NCBI RefSeq assembly: GCF_028368995.1
Contig: NZ_JAQNDL010000001.1
Span: 3,552,001 to 3,616,000 of the forward strand
Source: Nannocystis bainbridge
GTDB lineage: Bacteria; Myxococcota_A; Polyangia; Nannocystales; Nannocystaceae
DNA: 64,000 nt
Direction: 5' to 3'
The notes beneath the pieces were generated by a model, which was not told the DNA's origin, made no database searches, and worked only from the letters and a program-made list of their open reading frames with translations. Of this stretch, positions 207 through 62,900 are shown piece by piece. A program made the translations under genes and the position numbers. Every line of letters starts with the position of its first letter. Within the stretch, counting starts at the first letter, position 1.

Positions 207-796
207 GGCGCCTCTCCGCCCTCCTCGAGGGCGTCGGGCAGGAGACCGAGCGGCAGGTCGACGCGCAGGCGCTCACCGTCGAGGTCGGCGATGAACTGCG
301 GCAGCGCGGGCAAGAGCCAGGTGTCGCGGCGACCGTCGGGGCGCGTCCACTCGACCTCGAGCAGATCTTGCACCCCATTGCTGGTGACACCGGCGACGAC
401 CCCGAGCGCCTGGGTGCGGCCGTCCGCGTGCACGCGCTCGACCGGGAGGCCGATCGTGTCGGAGATGTAGAACTCGTCCTCGGCCAGCGCAGGCAGATCG
501 GCGCGAGCGACCCACACCTCGAGCCCGCGCAGGCGCTCGGCATGGTCGCGGTCGGCGACCCCGTCCAGCTGGACGCGCGCCGACGGCTTGCCGGGGATCG
601 GCTCGACCGAGACGATCACGAAGGACATGTCCGATCGGGCATGTCCTTCGGGGCTACCGGATGGCCGGAGCTCGACCCGCAAGCCGCGCCTCAGGGCGCG
701 CGAGTCGGGGTCGAAGAGGTGGAAACGAAGCTGACCGCGAACGCCGTGCGGCGCGGAGACCTCGGCGACGGCGATCGCGGCGGAGCGGCCCGACAC
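203..796 (-). CDS. rimM: Ribosome maturation factor RimM
   Basis: PHGVRG, DRDHAERLRG, LPALAEDEFY and GVQDLLEV motifs; operon context. Confidence 0.93.
   Translation of the reverse strand: MSGRSAAIAVAEVSAPHGVRGQLRFHLFDPDSRALRRGLRVELRPSGSPEGHARSDMSFVIVSVEPIPGKPSARVQLDGVADRDHAERLRGLEVWVARADLPALAEDEFYISDTIGLPVERVHADGRTQALGVVAGVTSNGVQDLLEVEWTRPDGRRDTWLLPALPQFIADLDGERLRVDLPLGLLPDALEEGGEAP
623..655. repeat. 14-bp TGTCC-N4-GGACA units inside rimM
   Basis: GGACA|TGTCC GATC GGGCA|TGTCC TTCG GGGCT. Confidence 0.75.
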
Positions 797-808
797 GGCG
801 GCCTCCGG

Positions 809-1066
809 CTACTCGAGGATCTCGAGGTCGGCGCGCTTGCGGAGCTTGGCCGAAGCGGCGCTGAGCAGCGAGCGCATGGCCTTGACGGTGCGCCCCTGCT
901 TGCCGATGACCTTGCCGAGGTCGTCGCGGGCGACGCGGAGCTCGAGCACCACGGTCTGCTCGCCGGCGATCTCGGAGACGTGAACTTCGTCGGGACGATC
1001 GACGAGGGCACGCGCGAGGAACTCGACGAGGTCCTTGAGGGAGATGTTCGCGGACGCTGCGGGCAT
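809..1066 (-). CDS. khpA: KH-domain RNA-binding protein KhpA/YlqC
   Basis: LVDRPDEV...[12 protein letters not shown]; lies between rpsP and rimM; start could be 1090. Confidence 0.92.
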
Positions 1067-1165
1067 GGGTGCCTCCGGGGGGTGTAGCACCGTCGCGGCT
1101 CATGCGAGCGCGACGGGGCGAGGCGCGAGGACGAGGGACCGGACGAGGAACGCGGGCCGGGAGGC

Positions 1166-1459
1166 CTACTTCGTCTCGGTCTTCTTGGTCTTCGGCTTGG
1201 CGGCCCGGGGGGCCTTGCCGGCGGCGATGTTGCGCGCGCGACGGAGCAGGCGCTCGACGGTGTCGGTCGGCGAGGCACCCTGGCTCTCCCAGTACTCGAC
1301 GCGGGGCGCATTGAGGGTGACCGACTCGGCGTGCGGGTCGTAGGTCCCGAGGCGCTCGAGGAAGCGACCGTCGCGCGGGCTGCGGGCGTCGGCGGCGACG
1401 ATGCGGTAGTAGGGACGCTTCTTGGAGCCCATGCGGGCGAGCCTGATCTTGACGGCCAT
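1166..1459 (-). CDS. rpsP: 30S ribosomal protein S16
   Basis: [42 protein letters not shown]. Confidence 0.98.
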
Positions 1460-5060: not shown

Positions 5061-5993
5061 TCACTTGAGCGCGACCACGTAGCCGAGCCAGGCTTCCTGG
5101 TTCTCGATCTCCGTGTGCTCGACGAACTCGCCGGTGCCGGTCAGGTACTCGTCGTCGTCCTCGTCGGCCTCGACGCGCTCGAAGTAGAACTTCACGCTCG
5201 AGAAGCCGGCCTCGCGCAGCAGCTCACCGAGCTCCGGCAGGGTCCACAGGCGCCAGTCGTAGGTGAAGGCGCGGTACAGCTGCGAGCCGTCGCGGAACTT
5301 CCACGTGATGTGGCACAGCGTGTGGTGGTTGATCGGGTTGAACTTCTCCTGCTCCCACACGTACGTCAGCCCGCCGCGCAGCTCGCGTTCGTCGCTGAGC
5401 TCGACCACCGCCTCGGTGCCGCCGTAGACCTCGAGCGCGAAGGCGCCGTCGGCGACCAGGTTCTCGTGGGCGGCGGCGAAGTAGCCGCGCAGCTCCTCGC
5501 GGGTCTTGAAGATGCAGTAGCTGAAGTTCATCGCCACGATCAGGTCGACCGCGGGCAGGCTGGTGTCGCGCACGTCGGCCTGGGCCAGCGTCACGCGCTC
5601 GACCGCGTCCGGGGGCGCGCCGGCGAGGGTGTTGGTGCGGCCCCACTCGAGCGTCGGGCCGTCGAGGTCGACGCCGAGCGCCGTGCGGCGCGGGTCGGAC
5701 TTGCACCACTCGGTGGAGAACAGCGCGGTGCCGCAGAAGTCCTCACGCACGCTGAGCGGGGGGCGGCCGCGGTGCTTCTGGAACTCGGCGTCGAAGAACT
5801 CGATGTCGACGCCGGGCGACTGGACCGAGCGCTGGTAGAGCGCGAACTTGTCGGCGCTCTCGGCCTGCGTCGGCCCGCGCTTGCGCGCCGGCGGCTTCGA
5901 CGACTTCTTCTTGGCCGCCGCGCTGGCCTGCTTCTTGGCGGGCTGCTGCTTCGGCGACTTCTTGGCGGGGGCCTTCGCGGTCTTTTTGGACAT
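5061..5993 (-). CDS. Class I SAM-dependent methyltransferase with Lys/Ala-rich N-terminal tail
   Basis: REDFCGTA, ALGVDLD, AMNFSY motifs; paralogue of the adjacent gene. Confidence 0.8.
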   Translation of the reverse strand: MSKKTAKAPAKKSPKQQPAKKQASAAAKKKSSKPPARKRGPTQAESADKFALYQRSVQSPGVDIEFFDAEFQKHRGRPPLSVREDFCGTALFSTEWCKSDPRRTALGVDLDGPTLEWGRTNTLAGAPPDAVERVTLAQADVRDTSLPAVDLIVAMNFSYCIFKTREELRGYFAAAHENLVADGAFALEVYGGTEAVVELSDERELRGGLTYVWEQEKFNPINHHTLCHITWKFRDGSQLYRAFTYDWRLWTLPELGELLREAGFSSVKFYFERVEADEDDDEYLTGTGEFVEHTEIENQEAWLGYVVALK

Positions 5994-6006
5994 GTTCGTT
6001 CAGACA
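5979..6006. repeat. Two 14-bp units spanning the methyltransferase start codon
   Basis: GGTCT TTTT GGACA|TGTTC GTTC AGACA; the junction CATG supplies the minus-strand ATG. Confidence 0.65.
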
Positions 6007-20277: not shown

Positions 20278-21015
20278 GTGAGTGGCGTGACCGACCCCGA
20301 GCGAGTGTACAGCGCCGAGGAGCTCGCCGCTGCCGCGCCGCCCGACGAGCCCGAGCCGGCGCCGGCTCCCGATGAGACGTTGACCCCGGAGCAGCGGGCC
20401 GAGAACGCCCGCCGCGCCGAGCAGGACCGCCGCGATCGCCAGCTCGTCCGTCGCCTCAAGCAGGGCGACGAGGCCGCGTTCCGCGAGCTGGTGCACACCT
20501 ACCAGAACCGGATCTTCAGCCTCATGCTGCGCATGATCGGCAACCGCCAGGAGGCCGAGGATCTCGCGCAGGAGGTGTTCATCATCGTCTACCGCGCGAT
20601 CGGCAACTACCGCGGCGAGGGTCGCTTCTACACCTGGCTCTACCGGGTCGCCAGCAACACCTGCAAGAACCGGATCAAGTACCTCAAGGGCCGCAACTTC
20701 CACCGCAGCCTCGACATCGACGAGACGCCGCAGGCGCAGATGCCCGCCGCCGAGACCGGCGCCGTCATCACCTTTCAGAGCCAGGTGCCCGGCCCCGAGG
20801 CCGTGACCGAGGGCATGCGCATGGAGAAGATCGTCCAGCGCGAGCTCGCCGCCCTCGATCCGGACCATCGCCTGCTCATCGTCCTCCGCGACGTGCAAGG
20901 CATGTCGTACCAGGACATCATCAAGATCACCGGCCTGCAGGAGGGCACGCTCAAGTCACGCCTGCACCGGGCGCGCCTGGCGCTGAAGGAGCGCCTGGAG
21001 CCGTTCATGCGCTGA
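20278..21015 (+). CDS. ECF RNA polymerase sigma factor (RpoE-like)
   Basis: AEDLAQEVF, FYTWLYRVASN, GTLKSRLHRAR. Confidence 0.95.
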   Translation: MSGVTDPERVYSAEELAAAAPPDEPEPAPAPDETLTPEQRAENARRAEQDRRDRQLVRRLKQGDEAAFRELVHTYQNRIFSLMLRMIGNRQEAEDLAQEVFIIVYRAIGNYRGEGRFYTWLYRVASNTCKNRIKYLKGRNFHRSLDIDETPQAQMPAAETGAVITFQSQVPGPEAVTEGMRMEKIVQRELAALDPDHRLLIVLRDVQGMSYQDIIKITGLQEGTLKSRLHRARLALKERLEPFMR

Positions 21016-21033
21016 CGCGCCGAGGACCGTCGT

Positions 21034-21447
21034 ATGGCCGAGCCCGAGACCGACAACGCCGAAGCGCTGATGAGCGCCTACCTCGACGAGGAGCTCGACG
21101 CCGAGGGCAAGAGCAAGCTCGAGGCGATGCTCGCGACCTCGCCCGCGGCGCAGAAGGAGCTGTCCGGCCTGCAGAACATGCTGCGGCTGGTCAAGGGCCT
21201 GCCCGAGGAGCAGGCCCCGCCCGACTTCTACGAGAAGGTCGCCAAGAAGATCCGCCGCCGCCGCTGGCTGCGCGGCGAGTACCTGATCGCGCTGGCCCTG
21301 CCGTTCCAGATCATCAACGTCCTCGTGATCCTCGCCGTCGCGGTCGTCTACATGATGCTCCACCTGGACGTCGACGTCGCCGGCCGCAAGCTCGAGCGCG
21401 ACCCGACGGTCCAGCAGGCCAAGCCGCCCGCGACGCCTGCGCCTTAG
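21034..21447 (+). CDS. Membrane anti-sigma factor
   Basis: LMSAYLDEEL N-terminal anti-sigma motif, one TM helix, directly after the ECF sigma. Confidence 0.85.
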   Translation: MAEPETDNAEALMSAYLDEELDAEGKSKLEAMLATSPAAQKELSGLQNMLRLVKGLPEEQAPPDFYEKVAKKIRRRRWLRGEYLIALALPFQIINVLVILAVAVVYMMLHLDVDVAGRKLERDPTVQQAKPPATPAP

Positions 21448-21507
21448 GGCATGTTCTCCGGGGCATGTCCTCGCGGGCATGTCCCCGGGCGCATGTCCTC
21501 GCGGACA
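21438..21507. repeat. Array of five 14-bp spaced palindromes
   Basis: TGCGC CTTA GGGCA|TGTTC TCCG GGGCA|TGTCC TCGC GGGCA|TGTCC CCGG GCGCA|TGTCC TCGC GGACA. Confidence 0.9.
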
Positions 21508-21520
21508 GCCGCCTTGGCGC

Positions 21521-28133: not shown

Positions 28134-28152
28134 CGCCGCGCGCGTCAGCCAG

Positions 28153-39140: not shown

Positions 39141-39177
39141 GAGCGCGTCGCCCCCAGGCGGCGCGCTCTTCGCTTTC
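39141..39177 (+). terminator. Putative intrinsic terminator
   Basis: GAGCGCGTCGCC-CCCA-GGCGGCGCGCTC hairpin followed by TTCGCTTTC. Confidence 0.5.
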
Positions 39178-39252
39178 TCGTCGGAGGTCATTTAGTAGCG
39201 AGACGGGACGTCGCCTCGCCGCGAATCTCTGTCCCGAAGGACAGGCGCGACC

Positions 39253-40302
39253 TCACCGCTCGGGCAGCGCCGCGATCGCCTCGGCGTGGCGGCCCTCGCC
39301 GACCACGTAGATCATCTCGGTGTTGCGCAGGTGGCTGACGCGGCCGACCTTCTCGCCGCGCGGGCTGTAGATCCCGATCTGGGCCCCGACGTAGCGCTTG
39401 TAGTCGAACGAAAGCACCCGCACCGGACCACGGCGGGCCAGCAGCGCCTCCAGCTCGGGGCGGCTCAGGTAGCCCTCGTCGCTGAACGAGACCACCATCA
39501 GCGGCGCTCGCACGGCGTCGATCAGCGCCTCCATGCTGGCGCGGATCTTGGTGCGGGCGTTGAACGGGCTGCGGCGCTCCTGGCAGTCGATGCGCTTGCG
39601 CGCGATCCCGTAGGCCTCGGGCGCGTCGCCGCGCACGATCGTCTCCCACACGTGGTAGTTGCCGAGGTACGAGTGTTGATTGTAGGGCGGGTCGAGGTAG
39701 GCGAGGTCGGCCTCGAGCACCGCCGCTGCCGCGACCGCGTCGAGCCCGTGCGCCTGGCCTTTCCCCCATGTCGCGCGGGACAGGACCTCCGGGACACGCA
39801 GCTCGAGGTCGCCGTGGGCGCGGGCGGCCCACGACTTGAGGTAGGCCATCTGCACGCCGGTGGTCGAGTCGACGCGGTCGGCGGCCTCGATGAGGGCGAC
39901 CAGCAGCACCGCCTCGAGCTCGGGCGCCAGGCCCTTGGCGGCGATCGCCCGGCGGATGGCGTCGATGCGGGCCCCGTTCTTCGGCTGGAAGAAGCGGGCC
40001 TCCTCGCAGAACGTGCGGGTCACGTAGCCGGGCTCGCCGGGCAGGGCGTTGAACTCGGTGACCAGGCGGCGGACATCCTCGACCACGTCCTCGCGGTCGG
40101 CCTCGACGTAGCAGCGGGCCAGCGTCTCCGCGTACTTGTTGTGGTCGTTGGCGAGCACGCGGTAGCCCGCGGCCTTGAGCGCGTGCCCGACCCGAGATGT
40201 CCCGGAGAACAGGTCGATCACCGTGCGGACCTCGGGCAGGCCGCGCACGATTCGCAAGATCTGCGGGATCAGCAGCCGCTTCGAGCCGAGGTACTTGATC
40301 AC
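39253..40302 (-). CDS. Orphan N6-adenine DNA methyltransferase (D12 class, NlaIII/HpyI-like)
   Basis: KYLGSK, DLFSGT, AND, NGARIDAIR, YLDPPYN...NYH, SFSDEG; GTG start overlaps the cpoB stop. Confidence 0.9.
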   Translation of the reverse strand: MIKYLGSKRLLIPQILRIVRGLPEVRTVIDLFSGTSRVGHALKAAGYRVLANDHNKYAETLARCYVEADREDVVEDVRRLVTEFNALPGEPGYVTRTFCEEARFFQPKNGARIDAIRRAIAAKGLAPELEAVLLVALIEAADRVDSTTGVQMAYLKSWAARAHGDLELRVPEVLSRATWGKGQAHGLDAVAAAAVLEADLAYLDPPYNQHSYLGNYHVWETIVRGDAPEAYGIARKRIDCQERRSPFNARTKIRASMEALIDAVRAPLMVVSFSDEGYLSRPELEALLARRGPVRVLSFDYKRYVGAQIGIYSPRGEKVGRVSHLRNTEMIYVVGEGRHAEAIAALPER

Positions 40303-42208: not shown

Positions 42209-42257
42209 CGAAGGCCGTGAAGCGAGTGGCCGAAGGCCGTGAAGCGAGTGGCCGAAG
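42209..42257. repeat. 22-bp tandem repeat in the pal leader
   Basis: CGAAGGCCGTGAAGCGAGTGGC x2 plus a partial copy. Confidence 0.8.
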
Positions 42258-42399
42258 GGCCGGGGGGAAAGCGTGTGGGCCAAAGGGCCGTGGAGAGCGA
42301 GAGGCCAGGGAGCTCTGGCGTGGACGGAGGCCGGAGGCAAACTGTCGTGCGGGGGTCCGGGAAGCAAATTTCCGGCGAAACTTCCGTCTGGCGGGCCAA

Positions 42400-45933: not shown

Positions 45934-46637
45934 GCAAACCCGACGACCCAGCACTCGTCCGCGCCGCGGTGCTCCAGCGCCTCAAGGTCCACGTCCGCAT
46001 CGCCCAGCAGGGTCTGGCGCCGACGCCCGACCAGCGGCGCCGCCTGGCCGCCTCGCTGCCGGAGTTGGTCGCGTTCGGCGACCGCCGCTACGCCCAGTGC
46101 CACGCCGTGCTCGACTGGGACCACCGTTTGCCCAGCGACGCGGCGGTGCTGCGGCTTTATCTGTCGTACACCGACCGCGAGGCCGGCGCGATCGAGAGCG
46201 CCCTCAAGTCGCGCGACCGCGAGATCGACGCTGGCAACCTCTACCCCGAGTTCGACGTGCCGGACTACGCCGACGTCGACGCCAGCGAGTCGTACGTCGC
46301 GGTCCTGAAGCCAGGCACCCACGAGGTCGGCGACCTGCGGTTCTTCAGCGACTGGCGCAAGGGCGTCCACCAGTCGGTCGCCCGCGAGGCCGTCGCGGCC
46401 GTGCGCACCAGCCCCAGCTACGAGCGCTCGATGCGGGAGCGCAGCCACGACAACCTCGGCCCGCCGGTGGTGATCGGCTGGACCCCGCCGTGCCTGGCCC
46501 AGAGCAAGCACTGGGCGATCGAGGTGTGGCTGCTGGTCGACTTCGACGGCCACGTCGGCCGCGCCCACGTGTTCATGGTCGACAGCAAGTCGCACCTGGT
46601 CACCCGCGAGTACTTCACCGAGGTCCAGATCGGCTGA
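45930..46637 (+). CDS. Hypothetical protein
   Basis: 235-aa ORF coupled to hisG (ATGA overlap). Confidence 0.75.
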
Positions 46638-46704
46638 CCTCGGAGACATGTCCCCTCGGGCATGCCGCATCGAGCATGCCCTGGGGGACATGTCCGCCAG
46701 GACA
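46635..46704. repeat. Array of five 14-bp units
   Basis: TGACC TCGG AGACA|TGTCC CCTC GGGCA|TGCCG CATC GAGCA|TGCCC TGGG GGACA|TGTCC GCCA GGACA. Confidence 0.9.
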
Positions 46705-46706: not shown

Positions 46707-47186
46707 CTAGCTGTCCTGGATCTTGATCGTCCGGCAGCTCTCGCCGGCGATCTTCGGCATCTTGAGGGTCAGCACGCCCTTCTCGAGGTGGGCGTCGGCG
46801 GCGCTCGAGTCGACGTGGCACGGCAGCTCGACCCGGCGGATGAACGAGCCGAAGCTGCGCTCGTGGTAGAAGTAGTTCTCGTTGTCGTCGCGCAGCTCCT
46901 CGCGCTTCTCGCCGCGCAGGGTCAAGATGTTGCCCTCGACGCTGCACTCGACGTCCTTGCCGTCGAGGCCGGGGACCTCGGCGCGGACCATGATGCAGTC
47001 GCCGCAGTCGCTGACGCTGAGCATGGGGTAGTTGCCGACCTGTTCGAAGCCGAGCGGGAAGCGGCCGAACACGCGGTCGAACATGCGGTGCATGTCCTGC
47101 TGGAACGGCGACATCGGCGACGTCGGCGACGTCGGCGACATCAGGTTGCTGGCAGGTTGATTCTTCTTCCAGGGGAGCAGCGACAT
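46707..47186 (-). CDS. Hsp20/alpha-crystallin small heat-shock protein
   Basis: AEVPGL, LTLRGEK, ERSFGSFIR, GVLTLKMPK. Confidence 0.93.
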   Translation of the reverse strand: MSLLPWKKNQPASNLMSPTSPTSPMSPFQQDMHRMFDRVFGRFPLGFEQVGNYPMLSVSDCGDCIMVRAEVPGLDGKDVECSVEGNILTLRGEKREELRDDNENYFYHERSFGSFIRRVELPCHVDSSAADAHLEKGVLTLKMPKIAGESCRTIKIQDS

Positions 47187-47273
47187 GATCATCTCCTCAG
47201 CGCGGAGAACCATGGGCCGGACCCTCTCGCCCGCAAACGCAAAAATTTTGCGCGTGCGGGCCGAACTAAGCCG

Positions 47274-51567: not shown

Positions 51568-51706
51568 GGGCAACCTCCGGGCGGACTCATCATGCGCGAT
51601 AGCGTGACGCTCGGCCACGCCGTTCGCGGGCCTCCAGCACACGCGGCGAGGCCGCGGCGCGGACCCGCGCGTGCGCCGGGGTCCGGGGTCCGATAAGGTG
51701 GTCGGC

Positions 51707-54256
51707 ATGTTGCGGTCGCCGCTCCGCCGCGCCTTCGCGGCGCTCTCGCTCGCCATCCCGCTCGGGTGCACCGACGACACCACCACGACCCTGGCGAGCG
51801 CCAGCGAGGTCACCAGCACGGGGATCGGCACCGACGGCACCGCGACCGACACGGACGGCCCGGTCCCCACCACCGGCGTCGGCACCACGACCACCGGCCC
51901 CGACCCGACCACCGGCCCGGTCCCCACCACCGGCGAGCCGCCGACGACCAGCACCACCGACGCGTCGACCACCACCGGCCCGTTCCCCACCATCAACCAG
52001 CCGCCGGTCGCCCTGGTCGATCACTACGTCACAAAGGCCAAGCAGGCGCTCTCGGTCAGCGCCGCCGAGGGCCTGCTCGCCAACGACTACGACGTCGACG
52101 GCGACCCGCTCACCCTCGTGTCCGCCGACCCGATCACCCCCGGCGGCGCCATGAACACCGCCTTCGTCGACGGCGGCTTCAACTACATGCCGCCCGCCAA
52201 GCTGTGGGGCAGCGACACCTTCCTCTACAAGATCTGGGACGGCAAGGACGGGTTCGCCCAGGCCCCCGCGCGCATCGAAGTGCGCCCGACCTCGATCGAC
52301 CTCGAGTACGTCGCCGACGGCATCGGCGGGTTCGCCATCGACGGCCAGGCGCCGGGCCACTACTCCGGGCGCAGCGTGCACGCCGTCGGCGACCTCGACG
52401 GCGACGGCCTCGCCGAGGTCGCGGTGGCCGCCCGCAACGCCGACGGCAACACCGGCCGCGTCTACGTCGTGCGCGGCAAGGTCGCCGGCGAGTCGGTCGC
52501 GCTCGGCAAGCTCGAGGCGCAGCAGCGCGGCTTCATCATCTATGGCGAGCTGCCCGGTGATTTCGCCGGCACCACGATCGCCGCCGCCGGCGACGTCGAC
52601 GGCGACGGCTTCGCCGACCTGGTGATCGGCGCACCGAAGGCCTCGACCAACGGCACCTCGTCGGGCTCGGCCTACGTGGTGTTCGGCAAGGACAACCTCG
52701 ACGCGGTCTATCTCGATGCGATCGCCTCGGGCGTCGGCGGGTTTGCGATCCTCGGCGAAAAGGCCGGCGACGGGGCCGGGCGCAGCGTCGCCGGCGCGGG
52801 CGACGTCGACGGCGACGGGCTCGCCGACCTCGTCATCGGCGCGTACGGAGCCGACCCCGGCGGCTCGTTCTCCGGCGCGGCCTACGTGGTGTTCGGCCAC
52901 GGCGAGGACAAGCCGACCCTGCTGGCCGACATCAGCGCCGGCGTCGGCGGCGGCTTCGCCATCAACGGCGAGGTCAGCCTCGATTTCGCCGGCTTCGCGG
53001 TCAGCGGCGCCGGCGACGTCGACGGCGATGGCCTCTCGGACATCCTCGTCGGCGCCTACGGCCACGACACCGCGGGCGACAGCGCCGGCCGCACGTACGT
53101 CGTCTACGGCAAGCCCGACCCGCAGGCGGTGCTTCTGACCGACGTCGCCGCCGGTCAGGGCGGGCGCGTGTTCGACGGCGCGAACGCCTACGACAAGTCG
53201 GGCTTCGCGGTCGCGGGCCTCGGCGACGTCGACGGCGACGGCTTCGCCGACCTGGCGATCGGCGCCCCGCTGGCCGACGCCGGCGGCGAGGACAGCGGCC
53301 GCGCCTACGTCGTGTTCGGCGGGCCCGACCTGGTCTCCGGCGCGCTGCCGGACCTCGCCAAGAGCCCGACCGGCTTCACGCTCGCGGGCGTGCAGGGCCG
53401 CGACTACGCCGGCACCTCGGTCGAGCGCGCCGGCGACGTCGACGGCGATGGCCACGACGACGTGCTGGTCGGCGCCCCCGGCTCCAACCCGCACGGCGGC
53501 GACTCCGGCCGCGGCTACGTGGTGTTCGGCGGGCCCGAGGTGCAGAGCACCTCGCTGGCGTGGCTCGAGAACGGCGACGGCGGGTTCTCGCTGGCCGGCG
53601 AGGCGACCGAGGACTACTGCGGGTTTTCGGTCGCGCCCGCCGGCGACGTCAACGGCGACGGCCACGCCGACGTGATCGTCGGCGCCCGCGGCAACGACGG
53701 CAAGGGCGAGGACGCCGGCCGCAGCTACGTGGTGTTCGGCGGCAACTTCAGCGGCGCCTCTCACATGTCCTACGGGCCAGGTCCGGAGAACATCGCCGGC
53801 ACGCCCGCGGGCGAGTCGCTGATCGCCGGCCGCGGCAACGACGTCATCGCGGTCGAGGGCCCCGACGTGGTCTATGCCGGCGCCGGCGACGACGACCTCG
53901 ACTGCGCCGGGACCGATTTTGTCCGCCTCGACGGCGGCGCCGGCCGCGACACGCTGCGCCTCGCCGGCCAGGGCCTCTCCCTCGACCTCACGGTCCGCTC
54001 GGAGCTCGACGTGGTCGACATCGAGGTGGTCGACCTCGGCGACGGCAACACCCTGAAGCTCGAGTGGCGCGACCTCCGGGCCCTGTCCTCCCGCACCCAC
54101 GCGCTGACGGTCGACGGCCAGTCCGGCACCCTCACGGCCGACCTCGGCGGCGCCGGCTTCGTCGACGCCGGGGTCCAGAACGGCTACCAGGTCTACCAGA
54201 GCCCGACGTTCACCCTCCGGGTCGCGCCCGCGATCGCGTCGCAGGTCATCCTCTGA
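51707..54256 (+). CDS. FG-GAP/integrin-alpha repeat lipoprotein with Ig-like domain
   Basis: LGC lipobox, Thr-rich linker, GLLANDYDVDGD Ig-like domain, seven GD(V/L)(D/N)GDG repeats, RTX-like GAGDD tail. Confidence 0.9.
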   Translation: MLRSPLRRAFAALSLAIPLGCTDDTTTTLASASEVTSTGIGTDGTATDTDGPVPTTGVGTTTTGPDPTTGPVPTTGEPPTTSTTDASTTTGPFPTINQPPVALVDHYVTKAKQALSVSAAEGLLANDYDVDGDPLTLVSADPITPGGAMNTAFVDGGFNYMPPAKLWGSDTFLYKIWDGKDGFAQAPARIEVRPTSIDLEYVADGIGGFAIDGQAPGHYSGRSVHAVGDLDGDGLAEVAVAARNADGNTGRVYVVRGKVAGESVALGKLEAQQRGFIIYGELPGDFAGTTIAAAGDVDGDGFADLVIGAPKASTNGTSSGSAYVVFGKDNLDAVYLDAIASGVGGFAILGEKAGDGAGRSVAGAGDVDGDGLADLVIGAYGADPGGSFSGAAYVVFGHGEDKPTLLADISAGVGGGFAINGEVSLDFAGFAVSGAGDVDGDGLSDILVGAYGHDTAGDSAGRTYVVYGKPDPQAVLLTDVAAGQGGRVFDGANAYDKSGFAVAGLGDVDGDGFADLAIGAPLADAGGEDSGRAYVVFGGPDLVSGALPDLAKSPTGFTLAGVQGRDYAGTSVERAGDVDGDGHDDVLVGAPGSNPHGGDSGRGYVVFGGPEVQSTSLAWLENGDGGFSLAGEATEDYCGFSVAPAGDVNGDGHADVIVGARGNDGKGEDAGRSYVVFGGNFSGASHMSYGPGPENIAGTPAGESLIAGRGNDVIAVEGPDVVYAGAGDDDLDCAGTDFVRLDGGAGRDTLRLAGQGLSLDLTVRSELDVVDIEVVDLGDGNTLKLEWRDLRALSSRTHALTVDGQSGTLTADLGGAGFVDAGVQNGYQVYQSPTFTLRVAPAIASQVIL

Positions 54257-54258: not shown

Positions 54259-54328
54259 TGCACTCGAGAGCATGTCCCGAGGGGCATGCTCTGAGAGACA
54301 TGCCCTTCGGAGCATGCCCGAACAGACA
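54259..54328. repeat. Array of five 14-bp units
   Basis: TGCAC TCGA GAGCA|TGTCC CGAG GGGCA|TGCTC TGAG AGACA|TGCCC TTCG GAGCA|TGCCC GAAC AGACA. Confidence 0.9.
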
Positions 54329-55713: not shown

Positions 55714-55736
55714 TGCGTGTCCGACGAGGAATCACA

Positions 55737-56005
55737 TGTCCCTTCGGACATGTCTGTCGCACCGCGTTCCGCAGCTCGCGGTCGCCGGCTCGCTCGCATC
55801 GTCTTGCGTGTTCGGCAGCGACGGGCCGGTCGCGTCCCGCCACCGAACGGCGAGCGTCGCATCGCCACACGGCCCCGACGGTCCACGCCCTTCGTCACCG
55901 AGGCTGCGAGGAGCGGGCCATTCGCCGCCGTTGACATGACCTCCGAGACGCAACCCGGAGCAACCGTCGGACGACGCACGCCCCCATGTCCCTTCGGACA
56001 TGTTC
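55737..56005. repeat. Two identical TGTCCCTTCGGACA units (55737, 55987) plus degenerate copies
   Basis: CATGTCCCTTCGGACATGT occurs at both ends of the intergenic region. Confidence 0.75.
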
Positions 56006-56010
56006 CATCA

Positions 56011-57762
56011 TCACGGCTGCGCGCGTTCGCAGGCCAGCAGCGCCTCGAAAGTCGCCCACGCCTTGCCGCCGCGCGCCTTGAGCCGCCCCGCGAGGACCCG
56101 GTTGGCCAGCGCGCGCACCAGCCGCTCGAGCCGCGCGCTGCGGACCAGCAGCTCCGCGACCTCCGCCTGGACCGCCCCGACTGCGGCCCCCGCCGCCTCG
56201 AACTCCGAGTACGCCGCGCTGCCGGTCAGCGCTGCCTCGATCTCGGCGCGGTGATGCTTCAACGTCGACGCGAAGTCGGGGTGCCACGGATCGTCGAGCA
56301 CAGGGAAGCGCGCCAGCAGCTCGGCCGCCACCGCGCGGTAGGCCGCGTCCTCGCGCTCGCTCGCCGCCCCGAGGCGCCCGTACGCCTCGTCCATCGCTTT
56401 TAATAAAGTTTGTTCGAGGTCGGCGGCGGCCTCGGCCTCGCGGCCCGCGTAGCCGAGCTCCGCCGTCAGCGCGGCGATCACCGCGTCCTCCTCGACCAGC
56501 GCCGCCGGGCGCGACTTCCCGCGGTTCGGCGCCGCCGCCCGCAGCCACCGCTCCGAGGTCGTCGTCGGCACGTCGATCCCCTGCCCGGCGATCCGCGCTC
56601 GCGCGTGCGCCTCGAGCGGCGACACCTTGCCGTCGCCGTCGAGGTCGAGCTGTGCCACTGGCAGCGGTTGACCCGCGCGATCGCGGCCGCGCAGCGCATT
56701 CAAAAAGTGCAGCGCGTAGCCCTCCTGGGCTGCGCGATCGGGGTTCGGATCGCAGCCCGACGCCTCGCGCTCGGCCGTCGCCGCGAACAGCCCGCAGCGC
56801 AGCGTCGCCGCCGGCCCCACCGCCGGCTCGCCCTTTTTAAAAAGGGCATCGGCGAACGCGCCTGAAAAGCAGCTCGTCGCCACGATCTGCACCGGGCGTT
56901 CGCCCGCGTCCAGCGCCTCGGCAAGATCGGCCACCTGCAGCGACGTCTGGCCCCACAGCCCGAGACCGCCGTGGCGCGGCGTCTCGCCGCGCTCGCCGTG
57001 GCCCGCGAGGTACAGCCGCAGCAGCGGCCCCGGCTCGGCGACCGCCTGCTTCACCGCTGCCAGCGCGTTGGCCCGCGTGGCCGCGGCCAGCGGCGACAGC
57101 TGCGTCGGCCGATAGCTCGCCTCCCGCCCGCCTCGCGGCGCGAACAGCTGCGCCAGCCTGGCCAGCAGCGGATCGCCGCGCGCCTCCGCGTCCTCGACCT
57201 GCACCCCGTGGCTGCCCGGCCCGCCCGCGAACAGCAGCGCACCACCTGTCCCGAAGACCTCTTTTGCGAGCAGCAGGTCCTGCTCGATCGACACCTGATT
57301 GAACTCCGGCGTCGCACCGCCGCCGATCGCCAACCAGCGCAGCGAGGGCAGCGGCGCCGGCAGCTCCCCATGCACCGGCCCGACCCCCAACGGCGATGAA
57401 TCACTCCCTCGCGGCACTGCGCCCGCGCCGTCACCCGCCGCATTCGTGCTCGTGATGTCCGGGCTCACCGCGCCCGCGCCGTCACGCGCCGCATTCGTGC
57501 TCGTTATCCCCGCACTCACCGATTCCACGCCCGCCACGCCCAGCCCCGCATCGGCGTGATTCGCCACGCCCACGGTGAGGCTCGAGTGCATCGCGCTGCC
57601 CGCCGCACGCGACCTCGCATCACTCGCCTGCGTCGCAGCCTCGTTCGCGCTCGCCGGGCCTGCATCCGCGGCCGCGCTCGCTGGCGGCGGCGTGCACGAG
57701 CCCATCAGCCCCGCGACCGCCATCGCGGCCACCGCCACCCTGCCTCGCCTCGTCCGGCTCAC
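56011..57762 (-). CDS. Lipoprotein with caspase-like (clan CD) peptidase motifs
   Basis: GSC lipobox; LYLAGHG and VATSCFSG His/Cys dyad motifs; EF-hand-like DLDGDGKVS. Confidence 0.65.
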   Translation of the reverse strand: MSRTRRGRVAVAAMAVAGLMGSCTPPPASAAADAGPASANEAATQASDARSRAAGSAMHSSLTVGVANHADAGLGVAGVESVSAGITSTNAARDGAGAVSPDITSTNAAGDGAGAVPRGSDSSPLGVGPVHGELPAPLPSLRWLAIGGGATPEFNQVSIEQDLLLAKEVFGTGGALLFAGGPGSHGVQVEDAEARGDPLLARLAQLFAPRGGREASYRPTQLSPLAAATRANALAAVKQAVAEPGPLLRLYLAGHGERGETPRHGGLGLWGQTSLQVADLAEALDAGERPVQIVATSCFSGAFADALFKKGEPAVGPAATLRCGLFAATAEREASGCDPNPDRAAQEGYALHFLNALRGRDRAGQPLPVAQLDLDGDGKVSPLEAHARARIAGQGIDVPTTTSERWLRAAAPNRGKSRPAALVEEDAVIAALTAELGYAGREAEAAADLEQTLLKAMDEAYGRLGAASEREDAAYRAVAAELLARFPVLDDPWHPDFASTLKHHRAEIEAALTGSAAYSEFEAAGAAVGAVQAEVAELLVRSARLERLVRALANRVLAGRLKARGGKAWATFEALLACERAQP

Positions 57763-57889: not shown

Positions 57890-58819
57890 ATGGTGAACGA
57901 GCGAATCACGATCGGCGCGCTCGCGCGTCGGTCGGGCGTGCCGGTCAAGACCCTGCGCTTCTACTCCGACGAGGGGCTCCTGCCGCCCGTCGGGCGGACG
58001 CACAGCGGCTACCGCGTCTACGCCGAGGACGCGATCGTGCGGCTCGACCTGATCCGCACCCTGCGCGAGGCCGGGCTGGCGATCGCCGCCATCAAGGCGA
58101 TCCTCGCCCGCGACATGACCCTGGCCGAGGCCCTGCGCCTGCGGCTCGGCGCCGTCGAGGCCCACATCGCCTCGCTGCAGCACATCGCCGCGGCCCTGCG
58201 CGCCACGCTTCGCTCCGAGCCTGAACCTGCAGACATCCGGAGGTTGAGTACCGTGACCCGAATTACCAGTGACCAACGCAAAGCCATCATCGAGCGCTTC
58301 CACCAGCAGATCTCCGAGGGCGTGCCGATTGACGACACCTGGAAGCGCCAGGTCATGCAGGCGAGCACGCCGACCCTGCCGGAGGTGCCGACGCCCGAGC
58401 AGCTCGACGCGTGGATCGAGCTGACGGAGCTGGTCCAGGACGAGGCGTTCGTCGCGACGATGCGCGCCGCCGCGGCCGAGACCTGGAACTCCGGCTTCGA
58501 CGCCGTCGTGCACCAGCGCGTCAGCCACGAGGCCCACGCGGCCGCCCGCGAGCTCATCGCCCGCGGCGTCGCCCCGACCGACGCCGCCGCCCGCGCCGTC
58601 GTCGACCGCATGGCCGCCGGCCTCGCCGCCGCCCGGGGCGAGCCCGACACGCCCGCCTGGCGCGCCACCCTGCACGAGAAGAGCCGCGGCCACGACCCGC
58701 GCACGACTCGCTACTGGCAGCTCGCCGCCATCCTCAAGGGCGAGCCGCTCCAGGGCGGTCCGGGCGAGGAGTGGCACTGGCTCAACGCCGCCGTCGCCCA
58801 CCAGCTCGCGCCGGACTGA
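57890..58819 (+). CDS. MerR-family transcriptional regulator
   Basis: TIGALARRSGVPVKTLRFY...GYRVY; helical C-terminal domain (TipAS-like possible). Confidence 0.93.
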   Translation: MVNERITIGALARRSGVPVKTLRFYSDEGLLPPVGRTHSGYRVYAEDAIVRLDLIRTLREAGLAIAAIKAILARDMTLAEALRLRLGAVEAHIASLQHIAAALRATLRSEPEPADIRRLSTVTRITSDQRKAIIERFHQQISEGVPIDDTWKRQVMQASTPTLPEVPTPEQLDAWIELTELVQDEAFVATMRAAAAETWNSGFDAVVHQRVSHEAHAAARELIARGVAPTDAAARAVVDRMAAGLAAARGEPDTPAWRATLHEKSRGHDPRTTRYWQLAAILKGEPLQGGPGEEWHWLNAAVAHQLAPD

Positions 58820-58908
58820 CTCGCGGGACATGTCCGATCGGACATCGACGCCTTCACGCGGCCCTTTCGGCCGCGTGACCGAGCGGACATGTCCTTGAAG
58901 ACATGCTC
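58817..58908. repeat. Two doublets of 14-bp units between convergent genes
   Basis: TGACT CGCG GGACA|TGTCC GATC GGACA and TGACC GAGC GGACA|TGTCC TTGA AGACA|TGCTC. Confidence 0.85.
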
Positions 58909-59548
58909 ACTCCTCGCGCGCCACCGACGAAGCGATCAGCACCTGCGCAACCCAGTAGAGCACCATCAACAGCACCTCGACCCCGAGCGACCAGGCGATG
59001 AAGCGGTTGACGGCGATCAGCGTGTCGCTCAGCGCGAACGCGATCGCCCCGGCCAGCCCGGCCCACGCGCGGCCCTCCTGGCCCGGGCGTTCGCCGACCT
59101 GGGCGGCCGCGCGCCACATCATCGCGCAGATCACGATCACGTAGGCCAGCACCGGCCCGCGCAGCTCGCCGAGGTTCGGCGCCAGCCAGCCGTACACCGA
59201 CCAGCCGAACGCGACGATCGGCGCCAGCCGCAGCAGGTGCAGCGCGCGCGTGCGGCCGACGAACGCGGCCACGTAGGCCACGTGGGCCAGCAGGAACGCC
59301 GCCAGCCCGGCGATGAACAGGTCGATCGCCTCGGCGAGCAGGATGTCGCCGAGCAGCGAGAGCACGAGGCCCGCGCGGAGCCGCCTGGCATCGGCGCCGC
59401 GCACCGGCCACAGCCACGCCAGCACGCACAGCACCGGGATCGGCTTGAGCAGCAGGCAGGCGAGCTTCCACTCGGCGATCAGCGCGACGAAGAACAGCGC
59501 CGCGGCGACGAGCCCGACGCGCACCAACTGGACCGACCGGCGAGACAC
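58907..59548 (-). CDS. YhhN/lysoplasmalogenase family membrane protein
   Basis: LKPIP, GDILL, GLAAFLLAHVAY, FALSD, YWVAQ. Confidence 0.9.
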   Translation of the reverse strand: MSRRSVQLVRVGLVAAALFFVALIAEWKLACLLLKPIPVLCVLAWLWPVRGADARRLRAGLVLSLLGDILLAEAIDLFIAGLAAFLLAHVAYVAAFVGRTRALHLLRLAPIVAFGWSVYGWLAPNLGELRGPVLAYVIVICAMMWRAAAQVGERPGQEGRAWAGLAGAIAFALSDTLIAVNRFIAWSLGVEVLLMVLYWVAQVLIASSVAREE

Positions 59549-59650
59549 GCGCACGAGGATCGCCGAGCCCGCGCCCGCACGCGAGCCCGAAGTTGACCCG
59601 GCGCGAATTCGCCCGACTCGAACCGCGAAGACCGGGCCTGACCCATGGCC

Positions 59651-59907
59651 TGTCCTGAGGGACAGGCGTCCCGACGCGAGCCCGACTTCCCGTGTTGGCC
59701 TCTCCGCCGCCCATCCCATGTCCGAACGGACAGGCAGCCAGGGCGAGCCCGTTCACCCCGGCCTATGGCCTGTCCAAACGAACCGGTGCGGTGAGCCGAC
59801 GTGCCGGGCGATCAGCCCCTCGCGCCGCTGCCCCCGACCTGTCCGAACGGACAGGCGACGAGAGGCGCCGCCCCTCCGCCGCCTCCCATCACATGTCCGA
59901 AAGGTCA
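59651..59907. repeat. Five singleton 14-bp units
   Basis: TGTCC TGAG GGACA (59651), TGTCC GAAC GGACA (59719, 59840), TGTCC AAAC GAACC (59771), TGTCC GAAA GGTCA (59894). Confidence 0.85.
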
Positions 59908-59909
59908 GC

Positions 59910-62900
59910 TCAGTTCGGCGCCGGTCCGAGGTGCAGCGAGAACTTCGTGTGCAGCGAGCGCGCGTCGGGGCCGGCTGCGTCCGGCTCCTTGTCGAACGAC
60001 ACCTCGCCGCGGACCGCCGTCAGGCGCTGCATCAGCCGTTCGATCGGCGAGCCTGCGATCGGCAGCGGCGGGAACGACGGCGCGATCGTCGAGCCCTGCA
60101 GTGGGTCGGCCGCGCCTTCGGGGCGGAGCGTGAACTCGGGCGTCCCGTGGGCGTTGAGCGGCGCGAACCCGAAGTATTGCAGCCCGAGCTGCGCCAGCCC
60201 GCTCGTCGACTGCGTCGCCTGCGGGTCCCCGCGCAGCAAGATCTCCGCCGAGCGCAGCGCCGAGCTCCCGGCCACGTTCGCCTGGCCCTGCAGCGTCCAC
60301 AGCAGCGCCGTCCACAGCGGCGCCCCCACGGCCGTGCGCGTCTGCACCACGAATTGCGGGTCCGTCGCCGCCCCGGCCTTCGGCAGCTTGCCGTCGAGCA
60401 GGTCGTCGATCATCCGCGTCACCGTCGGTCGGTCGAGGCCGACCACGATCGCCGCCCCGGTCTGCACGTAGTGGATCGCCGCCGCGTCCGCGATCGCCTT
60501 GTCGGGCAGCAGCGGCGCGCCCGGACTGATGCCGACGCGCACGATCGGCAGCTCGCGGTGGCGGGCCACCTCGCCCCACTCGACCATGCCCGGCGCCACC
60601 GACTCGATCGTGGTCCTGAACGCCGCCAGCGTCGCCACCAGCATCGTCGGGTTCTTGACCTCGGCGATCGCGTAGACCGGGAACTTGCCGACTTGCCGCC
60701 ACAGCTCCTGGTCCTCGAACGCGCTGCGCGAGCGCTTCGGCGGCAGCTGCGTCGTGTCGTCCCACTGCGACAGCATCCCGACCAGGCCCGCGCGGTCGTC
60801 GACCCCGAGCATCACCCAGTCGCCGAGCCAGCCGAGGCCGACATCGCCCTTGCCGGTCAGCGTGCGCATCAGCTGGTCCATGTCGCGGCGCAGCCCGCTG
60901 TCCTGGCCGACCGCCCACACCGCCGACAGCCCGCGCTCGCCCGCCGTCACCGACACCCGCGACTTGCCGACCACCCCCTCGATCTCGCTGTAGTCGGTCG
61001 CCGAGATCAGCGGCAGCACGCGCACGTCGACGTCGGCCAGCGAACCATCGGCCGCGTCGCGCACGTCGAGGCGGATCGCCACCGGGTCGATGAACTGCCG
61101 CCAGTAGTTCTGATAGCCGAGCGCGAAGTTGTCGTAAGCGGTGCGCTCCTCCTCGCTGACCTTCTCGACCGCCGGCAGGTCGATCAGCGGCGTGAGGGCC
61201 GCGGGCGAGCCCCAGGTCGAGCGCGCCCCCTGGCCCGGCGCGAACGCGATCGCCTCGCCGCCCGCGTGCTTGAGCTCGTCGGCCGCCAGCAGCCCGGCGG
61301 CGATCAAACCTTGCGTGTCCTTCGGGGCATGTCCGAACAGCCAGCCGTGGAGCAGCGCCGCGTAGCCGGGCACCAGCAGCTCGGCCAGCGCCTCCTGGCG
61401 GCGGGCGGCGAGCAGCTTCTGCTGCGGGCCGACGACCGCGGCGATGAACTTGTCGCTGAGGAACGCCAGCGCCTGGTGCGTGCCCGGGTCGCGCGCCAAC
61501 ATGTACTTCAGGTCAGGTTCATCCGCGAGCCGGGGCGCCTGACCCTGCGCCGCCGCGAGCACCCGGGCCAGCGCGCCGGGGCTGTTGGACACGAACGCCA
61601 GCTCGCCGACGCGGGCGCGGTGCTGGTTCACCAGCCCGGTCGGGTCGGCCGCGCGCTGGACATCGACCCCTGCCAGCTTGACCGTCGTCGCCTCGATCCC
61701 CGCGATCTCGGCGCGGAAGCCGTCGAGCTGGCGCGTCAGCTCGGCGTCGAACACCTCCGCCTGCTTGAGCGTGAAGATCAGCGTCACGTCGGTGCCCTCG
61801 CGCAGGTACGGATCGCTGCCGACGATCGCCACCTCGCCCACCACCGTGTGGCCGAACAGCTTGGCCAGGTCGCTGCGGCGCAGCCCGAGCTGTCGCTGGT
61901 AGCGCGCCGTCAGCCCGCGGTCCTCCGGGTTCTGTTGCAAGATCTGCACGACTGGCGTGATCCACGTGTCCGCCTCGTCGAGCAGGCGCAGCAGCAGGCG
62001 CACGTCGTCGATCCGCGCGTACCAGAACTCCGCCGGCGTCGCCGCGGCCAGCGGCTCGGCCGCGCCGCCGTTCGGGTTCGGCAGCGCCGCCTGCATCGCC
62101 GCGAACGGGTGAGCGGCCAGCGGCGGCGGCTTGAGGTCGGCCAGCGCGACCTTGCGCGGACCTTCCTCTCGGGACAGGCGCAGCCCGCGGTCGTGCTGCA
62201 GCGCCTCCTGCATCGACATCACCCCGGTGGTCGTGTCCATCAGCCGCGACAGGTCGGTGCGCGGTGGTTGACGGCTCAGCAGATCCGACCCGCCCAGCGC
62301 CTTGGACCCCGGCTGTCTCTTGAGCCACGTGGCGATCCGCCCGGCCGCGAATTGCTTCCACGGGTGCGGCTCGTTCCACGTGTCGCCGAGCGTCTGCACC
62401 ATCGCCTCGGCCCAGCGCACTTGCAGCCCGGCGTCGTCGGCCTGCTTCGGCGCACCCGCCCCGGCGAACGGCACCCGCACCCAGTCGTTGCGCCCGTCCT
62501 GCCAGCGGCGGGCGTAAAACGCCCCGCGCAGCGACGTCGGCGCGGCCGGCGATTTCGGCCGGCGGACCTGGATCACCGCCTCGCTGGCCCCGGTCCCGCT
62601 CGCCATCACCGCGACGTGGCCGGGGGTGTTGCCCTCGAGCTCGACGTGCAGGCGGTCCCAGTCGAGCGACAGGTCGTCGCCGACGATCGGCACCCGGACC
62701 TCGACGTACTCGACCTCGCCCTCGACCCGGTAGGCCGCGATCGCGCCCTGCAGCTCGGCGTGCTCGAGCGGCGCGCGGGTGCCGGTGCGCAGCGCGGGCA
62801 GCGGGTCCGGCGGATCTTCGGCGCGCACCGTCGGCGCCGGCGTCCCGACCTGCTCGTTCGAACCTGTCTCTTCGGACTTGTCCTTGCCGCAGCCGGCGAG

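Follow-up and report, generated by a model that had tools for sequence, protein, structure and literature searches.

The window analyzed here is the whole of a 64-kb stretch of DNA (positions 3552001-3616000 on contig C1 of genome G000, the window's own genome, which has 11.05 Mb in 5 contigs, 71.5% G+C, and a marker-gene completeness of 90%), and the element in question is a short spaced palindrome, TGTCC-N4-GGACA (the perfect unit), which recurs in it as single sites, doublets, and rows of abutting units. An initial annotation had counted about 30 loci by eye and had read them as sites for a dimeric protein. The family is real and larger than that count. The looser pattern TGYYYNNNNRRRCA (TGYYY-N4-RRRCA) matches the window 39 times, whereas 100 dinucleotide shuffles gave 2.40 +/- 1.41 matches (largest 6), and it matches the 11-Mb genome 5,521 times. 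All five arrays that had been named are present and in register, as are the doublets at 58817 and 58876 and the single units at 39230, 59651, 59719, and 59840; at 5979, where a doublet had been noted, 1 good unit (5993-6006) stands behind a degenerate partner.

The array of 5 abutting units at 21438-21507 fills the convergent spacer between an open reading frame (ORF) at 21034-21447 (+) and a CHASE2/cyclase gene (Pfam) at 21521-23734 (-), and in the same-genus genomes G005 and G007 its position is kept while its sequence has diverged. Another 5 units (46635-46704) fill the convergent spacer between the ORF at 45969-46637 (+) and an Hsp20 gene (46707-47192, -) and are partially conserved in the same 2 relatives. 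An array of 6 units (29413-29496) occupies a convergent spacer immediately 3' of the TGA of an 80-amino-acid RRM-domain gene (29173-29415, +), and 5 units at 54259-54328 begin 3 bp past the stop of an FG-GAP/cadherin-like gene (51698-54256, +) and leave about 340 bp to the next gene, in a spacer where the units of G005 and G007 are shorter and placed differently. The histidine cluster at 25819-28133 (+), comprising hisA-like, hisF-like, and hisIE genes, holds 6 units with degenerate middle ones (27348-27431) that form the entire hisF-hisIE spacer, 66 bp made solely of array units. The stop TGA of hisF (26550-27350, Pfam His_biosynth) supplies the TG of the first unit, the ATG of hisIE (27417-28133, Pfam PRA-CH/PRA-PH) is part of the last CATG junction, and the arms of this array are conserved in G005 and G007.

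Smaller groups and single units lie in similar places. Two doublets (58817-58844 and 58876-58917) share the convergent spacer of a MerR-family gene (57890-58819, +) and a YhhN gene (58907-59524, -), and a doublet at 614-655, conserved in G005 and G007, lies where a RimM-like gene (203-628, -) starts, with the CAT of a junction forming the minus-strand ATG of that gene. Two identical single units, TGTCCCTTCGGACA, at 55737 and 55987 lie 250 bp apart in one convergent spacer (55723-56014), each CATG-flanked on both sides, and both relatives have arrays of 5-6 CATGs there instead. The 3 isolated units of the region 59651-59853 read C-TGTCC-N4-GGACA-G at 59651 and 59840 and A-...-G at 59719, with 2-4 similar units in the same region of G005 and G007. 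The isolated unit C-TGTCC-CGAA-GGACA-G at 39230-39243, which shares its convergent spacer with a classical hairpin-plus-T-run site (39141-39168), has identical arms in both relatives and differs from them at 3 of 4 spacer bases. Inside genes, the perfect unit TGTCCTCGAGGACA at 34527-34540, read as V-L-E-D within a 1,090-amino-acid ORF (34483-37755, -), and a unit at 61316-61329 within a 997-amino-acid ORF (59910-62903, -) are identical in G005 and G007, and further intragenic units lie at 30848, 40198, and 49376. An in-phase doublet or triplet at 23354-23395, inside the called CHASE2/cyclase ORF, is poorly conserved in the 2 relatives, and the true start codon of that gene possibly lies there. 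Some of the units called as intragenic in the window are probably true start codons or spacers; the genome-wide figures given below are independent of them.

Across the genome, the period of the arrays is strictly 14 bp. Successive matches of the looser pattern lie 14 bp apart in 811 cases, 28 bp apart in 271, and 42 bp apart in 128, and the autocorrelation of CATG, expected from the initial annotation to peak at 14, gives 3,736 pairs at 14 bp vs 72 at 13 bp and 262 at 15 bp, with harmonics of 2,073 pairs at 28 bp, 1,586 at 42 bp, and 751 at 56 bp. Chaining of CATGs at this period yields 2,338 arrays, with 2 CATGs in 1,350, 3 in 367, 4 in 283, 5 in 212, 6 in 94, 7 in 23, and more than 7 in 9, a distribution that drops steeply beyond six to seven junctions. 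Tandem Repeats Finder reported only parts of two 14-bp arrays in the window (21447-21504 and 29439-29491), because the units are too dissimilar to each other. A period of 14 bp with a 4-nt spacer also sets the arrays apart from CRISPR, whose repeats measure about 24-48 bp and spacers about 26-72 bp, in agreement with what had been said of them at the outset.

The spaced palindrome itself is the unit, as had been proposed. TGTCC-N4-GGACA has 1,987 copies in the genome, compared with 16 for N3 and 5 for N5, and no other spacer length from 0 to 12 exceeds 16 copies; the directly abutting form GGACA|TGTCC has 956 copies, compared with at most 19 for each gap of 1-12. When all 16 base combinations were tabulated for each arm pair, T0/A13, G1/C12, and C3/G10 were found to be read as sequence. 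The pair G1/C12 is almost invariant (single-variant classes of 25, 13, and at most 6 copies vs 1,987 for the consensus), with compensated transversions in 1 copy (A..T), 4 copies (C..G), and 2 copies (T..A). Arm position 2/11 tolerates all bases; its complementary combinations (G..C 78 copies, A..T 25 copies) are not above the single-variant rates plus background, and inside arrays the 2 bases show no association (odds ratio 0.99). Complementary transversion pairs at the arm pairs show no excess over expectation, and the unit shows sequence read-out rather than pairing. The earlier statement that the arms vary without compensatory changes is borne out in that no compensated transversions stand out, while the statement that they vary mostly by transitions fails at position 2/11.

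The 4-nt spacer has a symmetric preference, with Y at its first base (position 5) and R at its last (position 8), and its A+T content is about 55% in intergenic arrays, 41% in intergenic perfect singles, and 37% in perfect singles within genes, compared with 28.5% for the genome. In tandem intergenic spacers oriented by the sense strand, a unit spacer and its reverse complement are equally frequent (CGAA 82, TTCG 71). The isolated units flanked by C...G (413) still favour R-S-C on the left and G-S-Y on the right, and because isolated units keep these symmetric flank preferences, the recognised stretch would be about 20 bp, wider than the 14 bp of the unit. Within an array, adjoining units have the six bases RCATGY in common, and CATG in these unites the two best-conserved dinucleotides of adjacent units (the CA end and the TG start), and this accounts for the exact 14-bp period and the near-invariant CATG. 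The spacers rarely repeat, as had been noticed: identical 4-nt spacers make up 4.5-5.9% of within-array unit pairs vs 1.1% of random pairs, an excess over chance by which some unit duplication appears recent, and most spacers within arrays are unrelated to one another. The idea that arrays are long perfect palindromes was rejected, with mirrored spacers matching at 4 of 4 bases in 3.8% of pairs (separation 2) vs 1.0%, barely over chance.

Units are also abundant inside genes, where the scan of the initial annotation had missed them. Genes were called by a crude in-house method that uses a codon model and returned 7,877 ORFs (82% of the genome; start codons unreliable). Strict units in called coding sequences number 1,681 vs 109.5 +/- 14.4 when codons are permuted within each gene, and by the same permutation perfect units number 740 vs 4.8 expected; together with the dinucleotide shuffle of the window, this upholds the claimed enrichment. 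Approximately 38% of all perfect units (747 of 1,987) fall in called genes, 612 of them deep inside, and since the G+C content at third codon positions (GC3) is 0.93-0.95 on both sides of these 612, they lie in real coding regions and not in mis-called spacers. Intragenic units are distributed evenly along gene length. The codon ACA is rare, making up 1.9% of Thr codons, and 564 of 2,739 ACA codons (20.6%) fall in units, which cover 0.22% of codons; the motif overrides coding constraints.

We compared arms, spacers, and flanks between 520 kb of G000 and the syntenic parts of G005, a test that covers one species pair and tens of units on crude gene calls. Intragenic singles (30 of 30 aligned) differ at 13/300 arm, 13/120 spacer, and 176/1,440 flank positions (arm vs flank p = 2e-5), and in G005 the strict pattern persists in 26 of the 30. 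For intergenic singles (19 of 58 aligned), the differences amount to 22/190 arm, 14/76 spacer, and 175/912 flank positions (p = 0.012), and for array units (9 of 43 aligned) to 14/90, 17/36, and 120/432 positions, respectively (p = 0.017). Judged by these substitution counts, the arms are shown to be better conserved between species than their flanks, which for the intragenic singles are coding sequence, and appear to be under selection. After the RRM gene, a CATG array of 14-bp period starts at the stop codon in 6 of 6 same-genus genomes, with 3-6 junctions, and the 10-nt interiors differ and are barely alignable while the coding flank is 95-99% identical. Orthologous spacers differ in the number and placement of units, and whole units have been gained or lost between species.

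Such gain and loss of whole units, the recent duplication of some of them, and the confinement of arrays to the least constrained DNA are also in line with a functionless origin, either as a by-product of biased repair or modification or as a selfish short repeat growing by slippage where it is tolerated. We regard this explanation as very unlikely. The arms are conserved beyond their flanks in genes and in spacers while the 4-nt spacers drift, the mostly unrelated spacers mean that the arrays are not recent copies, and the array after the RRM gene has kept its position in all 6 genomes. The D12 methyltransferase that was tested does not track the motif, and a REP-type transposase was not found in the genome.

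The abundance of the unit is confined to a narrow taxonomic range. Against the 1,987 perfect units of G000 (3 matches of a reversed-pattern control), five other large same-genus genomes have 1,550-2,090 (control 3-6) and five smaller, fragmented ones 114-959 (control 1-4), while the sister genera G013 and G011 have 161 and 87 (control 1 and 10). Counts are 3-5 (control 0-5) in six further genera of the family and 0-7 (control 0-4) in twelve other families. Beyond the group of large genomes, arrays are far scarcer than singles. Four in-phase CATGs occur 869 times in G000 vs 1-13 times in the five smaller same-genus genomes, and of 400 further genomes sampled from the phylum (255 genera including that of G000), 15 had 1-5 matches, with the listed matches being identical-unit satellites in all except one genome (G064). 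Of the other genomes examined, 8 of 10 from the same genus contain the strict doublet pattern, vs 0 of 20 from elsewhere; G011 and G013 have no strict doublets despite their 87 and 161 perfect units, and the units of G013 are single and lie in genes and spacers alike. By this distribution, we take the single site to be the older state and the arrays to be a later elaboration. Scanning one genome per species (185,579 species) for six in-phase CATGs gave at least 110 loci. Among the matches listed (110 loci), 19 are in records named Nannocystis (exedens, pusilla, radixulma, and sp. RBIL2), and 18 of the 19 loci in which all five interiors differ are from Nannocystis, the nineteenth being an A+T-rich stretch in a Gluconobacter metagenome-assembled genome. 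The other 91 among the matches listed (one of them Nannocystis, L046) repeat at least 1 interior and are mostly near-identical-unit satellites, with a mean pairwise identity of 0.73-1.0, or 0.64 for L082. These results indicate that the unit is abundant across one genus, Nannocystis according to the named records, weak in two sister genera, and at background elsewhere.

Within the genome, the average density is 25 units per 50 kb, and unit deserts of 100-200 kb lie at C1:1.10-1.30 Mb, C1:0.50-0.60 Mb, C2:0.75-0.85 Mb, and C5:0.40-0.50 Mb. Unit density in the deserts is 3-40-fold lower, at 0.04-0.08 vs 0.21-0.24 per kb in genes and 0.07-0.4 vs 2.4-3.4 per kb in spacers, and GC3 (0.89-0.93 vs 0.94-0.95) and the called coding fraction are lower as well. 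The deserts may be acquired islands, and the regional pattern fits a slow accumulation of units in resident DNA and their absence from recently acquired DNA.

This distribution recalls uptake sequences, and the unit might be a tag of self DNA spread by molecular drive, with a DNA receptor or a recombination or repair factor preferring unit-bearing DNA so that units accumulate and pile up where they are harmless. The restriction to one genus and, weakly, two sister genera with a graded copy number, the presence of units in genes and spacers alike, and the low-GC3 deserts lacking units in both, as expected of recently acquired DNA, speak for such a tag. We nevertheless hold it to be quite unlikely. 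Known uptake sequences are asymmetric 9-12-mers that are not known to form arrays, no evidence in this analysis touches competence, and the conservation of arms at orthologous places fits selection on each site as well as it fits drive; arrays of 5-6 units would add nothing obvious to a tag, and the symmetry would be unexplained.

We set at about 0.5 the probability of our preferred reading, in which a putative dimeric DNA-binding protein recognises the unit as a site of about 20 bp with dyad symmetry and the rows are overlapping sites. Dyad symmetry, a fixed half-site spacing, and recognition of sequence over pairing are the features of an operator, and the unit has all of them. The read-out by a putative dimer is favoured by the exact spacing of the half-sites around a free spacer, by the reading of sequence and not pairing, and by the symmetric flanks, and further by the absence of polarity, the arm-specific conservation, and the persistence of the unit against codon bias. 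The element would be T-G-t-C-C-(Y N N R)-G-G-a-C-A, with weaker flanks R-S-M before and K-S-Y after, read by 1 putative dimer; a pair of small dimers with a 7-bp half apiece would account for the data just as well. Single sites would be maintained by selection across the resident chromosome, genes included, and would be packed where DNA is otherwise unconstrained, in the promoter-free stretch past stop codons and above all between convergent genes. Packing would take place at the closest spacing that lets neighbours share their flanks, where the CA end and the TG start fuse into CATG, and arrays would represent the densest packing, a platform for several dimers side by side. The dimeric site with arrays as multi-dimer platforms, as proposed in the initial annotation, thus fits the statistics better than its rivals do, while protein binding, its cooperativity, and its purpose are inferred, and a candidate protein was not found among the genes beside the arrays that were inspected.

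The placement of arrays between genes bears on what such a protein could do. Arrays of at least 4 CATGs number 384 in convergent spacers (of 1,427 such spacers), 199 in tandem spacers (of 4,323), 12 in divergent spacers (of 1,451), and 26 inside genes. Among spacers of 30-500 bp, an array of at least 2 CATGs is present in 622 of 1,146 convergent ones, with a single unit only in 133 and neither in 391; the corresponding numbers are 455, 316, and 2,283 of 3,054 tandem spacers, and 56, 70, and 989 of 1,115 divergent spacers. Promoter control is unlikely, because arrays avoid divergent, promoter-bearing spacers (12 of 621 arrays of at least 4 CATGs) and hug stop codons, and the global regulator suggested from the window is unlikely for the same reason. 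An obligatory terminator or roadblock is likewise unlikely, because a six-unit array fills the hisF-hisIE spacer within the his cluster, which we take, from the usual his operon, to be co-transcribed. Our best guess is a chromosomal role, either in nucleoid organisation or in marking or insulating gene ends. A bolder version would be a gene-end code, in which an abundant dedicated protein polymerises on the phased arrays behind more than half of convergent gene pairs and insulates transcription units topologically or against read-through, with intragenic singles serving as a reservoir or scaffold for nucleoid folding; we consider it doubtful.

The same placement is what a REP/BIME-like transcript element would show, and most of the points that weigh against a protein-binding site come from this side. 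Arrays would then be stacked hairpins in 3' untranslated regions, with the 10-nt palindromes of the junctions pairing across the 4-nt spacers, that block exonucleases or act as two-way terminators or attenuators, with single units as seeds or by-products. Within tandem spacers, the median gap is 16 bp between the upstream stop and the array and 229 bp between the array and the next start, and the distance from stop to first unit is most often 14 bp (77 cases), with a second peak at 0 bp (23 cases), the stop often being the TG(A) of the first unit; arrays hugging stop codons, often in register, are what a transcript 3'-end element would show. RNA folding of the arrays is very stable on both strands (-38 to -54 kcal/mol, z -3.2 to -6.8). 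In sense-oriented tandem spacers, arm variants compatible with G.U pairing mildly exceed C-A variants (298/186, 195/163, and 279/241, or 772 vs 590 in total), a bias that transcription-linked mutation would produce as well. Classical hairpin-plus-T-run sites are at chance in 20 kb of the window (6 found vs 4.6 +/- 2.3 expected), and the genome may therefore need another type of 3' end. Doubly changed transition pairs in the arms are about 1.3-2.4 times above independence, although a mix of well-kept and decaying sites would also give this pattern. From other quarters, the conservation tests rest on 30, 19, and 9 units of one species pair, the aligned units between genes (19 of 58 singles and 9 of 43 in arrays) being a biased subset, and a 14-bp period sets neighbouring dimers about 120 degrees apart on the helix, where they may not coexist sterically.

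A transcript element is nonetheless unlikely in our view. Compensatory changes are absent, with G1/C12 fixed in sequence, and the spacer keeps to exactly 4 nt, whereas a hairpin would allow 3-6 nt. In 116 sense-oriented arrays, we found no T enrichment downstream, no quality gradient, and no strand skew, so that the arrays lack the T-run and polarity that mark an intrinsic terminator with its G+C-rich hairpin. The 747 intragenic perfect units persist against codon bias, and the array in the hisF-hisIE spacer lies inside the his cluster. Compared for a replacement of hairpins by arrays, convergent spacers with and without an array had similar per-base rates of other long stems, which may count against a transcript element as well. 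A Y1 transposase was not found in the genome (completeness 90%), and Rfam gave 0 matches at or above the gathering score on both strands of the 64-kb window. A Rho-loading role was considered since arrays seldom exceed 6-7 junctions (Rho takes about 13 nt per subunit and has six subunits), and it was dropped because the units are not C-rich and are symmetric. Metagenome contigs over 20800-30700, from runs that hold a small share of the words (0.08-0.16), come from relatives at 90-99% identity and break into pieces at the arrays, and they have no bearing on transcript ends.

The search for a binder also weighs against a dimeric site, as no sequence-specific DNA-binding protein was found among the candidates beside arrays. 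Translations of 10 small genes beside 38 arrays in divergent spacers, inspected by eye, included none like a sequence-specific DNA binder and one that was Dps-like; many of these divergent spacers are long and may contain genes missed by the caller. The genes beside the five longest arrays gave no binder candidate either. A D12 N6-adenine methyltransferase encoded in the window (39253-40302) was tried as a methylator of the junction CATG or partner of the arrays and was rejected, which again removes a candidate partner, because homologues of 58-71% identity occur in genera with background motif counts. This methyltransferase gene (-) is solitary (PF02086, E 3e-35), adjoins a TPR/YfiO-like lipoprotein gene, and has no restriction gene beside it. 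Its homologues, at 58-96% identity, are found across the family and in two other families, and in G007 it matches in two pieces (residues 1-128 and 126-349) and may be frameshifted. GATC is very frequent genome-wide (85,878 copies), compared with CATG (39,940) and CTAG (1,509).

The element resembles HIP1, REP/BIME, and uptake sequences and is a member of none of them, and the view that it matches no described element holds in Rfam for the window and in open-access full texts, where we found no description of it, including in texts on Sorangium or Nannocystis repeats and on TGTCC/GGACA palindromes. By analogy, it would work most like an operator array while being distributed like HIP1, uptake sequences, and, as regards the arrays, REP/BIME. 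HIP1 (GCGATCGC) of cyanobacteria is a lineage-restricted, over-represented short palindrome within and between ORFs, conserved between genomes, for which selection has been argued (PMC5861425). Both are lineage-restricted palindromes over-represented by one to two orders of magnitude in and between ORFs and conserved between genomes, the Nannocystis unit reaching the at least 15-fold over-representation used for words of the HIP1 type, and a chromosome-level role is suspected for both. HIP1 differs in being a contiguous 8-mer that contains methylase sites, whereas the Nannocystis unit is spaced (5-N4-5) with a free spacer, forms phased abutting arrays at gene 3' ends, and does not embed the site of a co-distributed orphan methyltransferase, as judged from the one D12 methyltransferase tested. 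We know of no phased gene-end arrays for HIP1.

REP/BIME elements are extragenic palindrome clusters past stop codons, more frequent in convergent and tandem than in divergent spacers and variable in copy number between relatives, and REPs are imperfect hairpins of 20-40 nt, copies of a master sequence, accompanied by a RAYT gene. The Nannocystis arrays share with them the position past stops, the rarity in divergent spacers, and a unit number that varies between relatives. They differ in a 14-bp unit with 5-bp arms and mostly unrelated spacers in place of hairpins with alike loops, in the presence of 38% of perfect units within genes where REPs are strictly extragenic, and in the lack of a Y1 (RAYT or IS200-IS605-type) transposase, for which a search of the whole genome with PF01797 gave 0 matches while 6 of 14 control genomes were positive. 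The initial judgement that this is not a classical REP is thereby supported.

Uptake sequences (the DNA uptake sequence, DUS, of Neisseria and the uptake signal sequence, USS, of Pasteurellaceae) are genus- or family-specific words with thousands of copies in genes and spacers and are depleted in atypical regions, and the unit has the same distribution. In Neisseria and Haemophilus, they often form inverted pairs behind genes. DUS and USS are asymmetric and unspaced and are not known to form phased arrays, which separates them from the unit. MetJ met-boxes (abutting 8-bp palindromes) and the heptads of the inc18 omega repressor bind one dimer per unit and need a minimum of two units or halves. 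The likeness to these lies in short units set end to end without gaps at an exact period, and the 14-bp unit may be seen as a pair of inverted 7-bp halves; they differ in that they occur in few promoters and control initiation, whereas the approximately 2,300 Nannocystis arrays avoid promoter-bearing spacers. Stoperators of Cluster A mycobacteriophages are operator-like words in genes and spacers that are bound by the phage repressor, and they are asymmetric, oriented with transcription, and present in a few dozen copies per genome, whereas the Nannocystis sites are symmetric, chromosomal, and present in thousands.

If a protein reads this word, a cultivable genus would have a chromosome whose gene ends carry a simple readable sequence code and would offer thousands of natural graded sites, from singles and doublets to rows of up to about 7 junctions. 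Were the gene-end code true, Nannocystis would have a chromatin-like system programmed by sequence, for which no bacterial counterpart has been described. With a protein that reads the word, the element would bear on the purpose of hyper-abundant palindromes such as HIP1, on how convergent transcription units are separated in very G+C-rich genomes without classical terminators, and on the override of codon choice by a motif, as one fifth of ACA codons exist because of the unit. It is also a sharp genomic signature of the genus, its absence marking recently acquired regions, and is worth considering when Nannocystis gene clusters are refactored for expression.

Several further observations concern the units and their surroundings. 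At array junctions, the symmetric word GCATGC is avoided (ACATGC 261, GCATGT 221, ACATGT 232, and GCATGC 97 of 811; odds ratio 0.39), and it is not rare genome-wide (3,803 copies). The junction form RRRCATGYYY coincides with the p53 half-site, and the open-access full texts found on the junction word are p53-site papers only. Within genes, 57 perfect units in phase 0 read C-P-x-G-Q/H in Cys-rich contexts such as QDCPEGQKC, and a small part of the intragenic units is therefore a repeated Cys-rich protein motif. The longest array (G000 C3:1237916-1238200) has about 20 in-phase units and 16 CATGs, is unusually A+T-rich, and has degenerate arms that retain little beyond (A)CATG; it is flanked by a YbjQ-like and a threonine-synthase-like gene, both identified by eye from translations.

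For the stand-alone 80-amino-acid RRM protein (PF00076; 29173-29415, +), identity over the final 135 coding bases is 95-99% among six same-genus genomes and far exceeds that of neighbouring genes (84-94%). In G007, G010, and G001, the convergent spacer after this gene is 300-400 bp longer than in G000, and its CATG array is followed by G+C-rich tandem repeats with a length of about 60-100 bp, which form a separate, second repeat family that is missing from this spot in G000. The site at 39141-39168 (+), 60 bp before the isolated unit and behind the ORF at 37976-39112, is the sole convincing classical terminator-like site in 20 kb; its G+C-rich stem measures 12 bp and its loop 4 nt, and its tail is T-rich. 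Outside the 14-bp family, Tandem Repeats Finder reported repeats at 28141-28306 (period 46-48, about 3 copies), 30371-30451 (period 21, 3.9 copies, 95% matches), 32362-32511 (period 67, 2.2 copies, 93%), 42209-42258 (period 22, 2.3 copies, 100%), and 57415-57521 (period 51, 2.1 copies, 87%).

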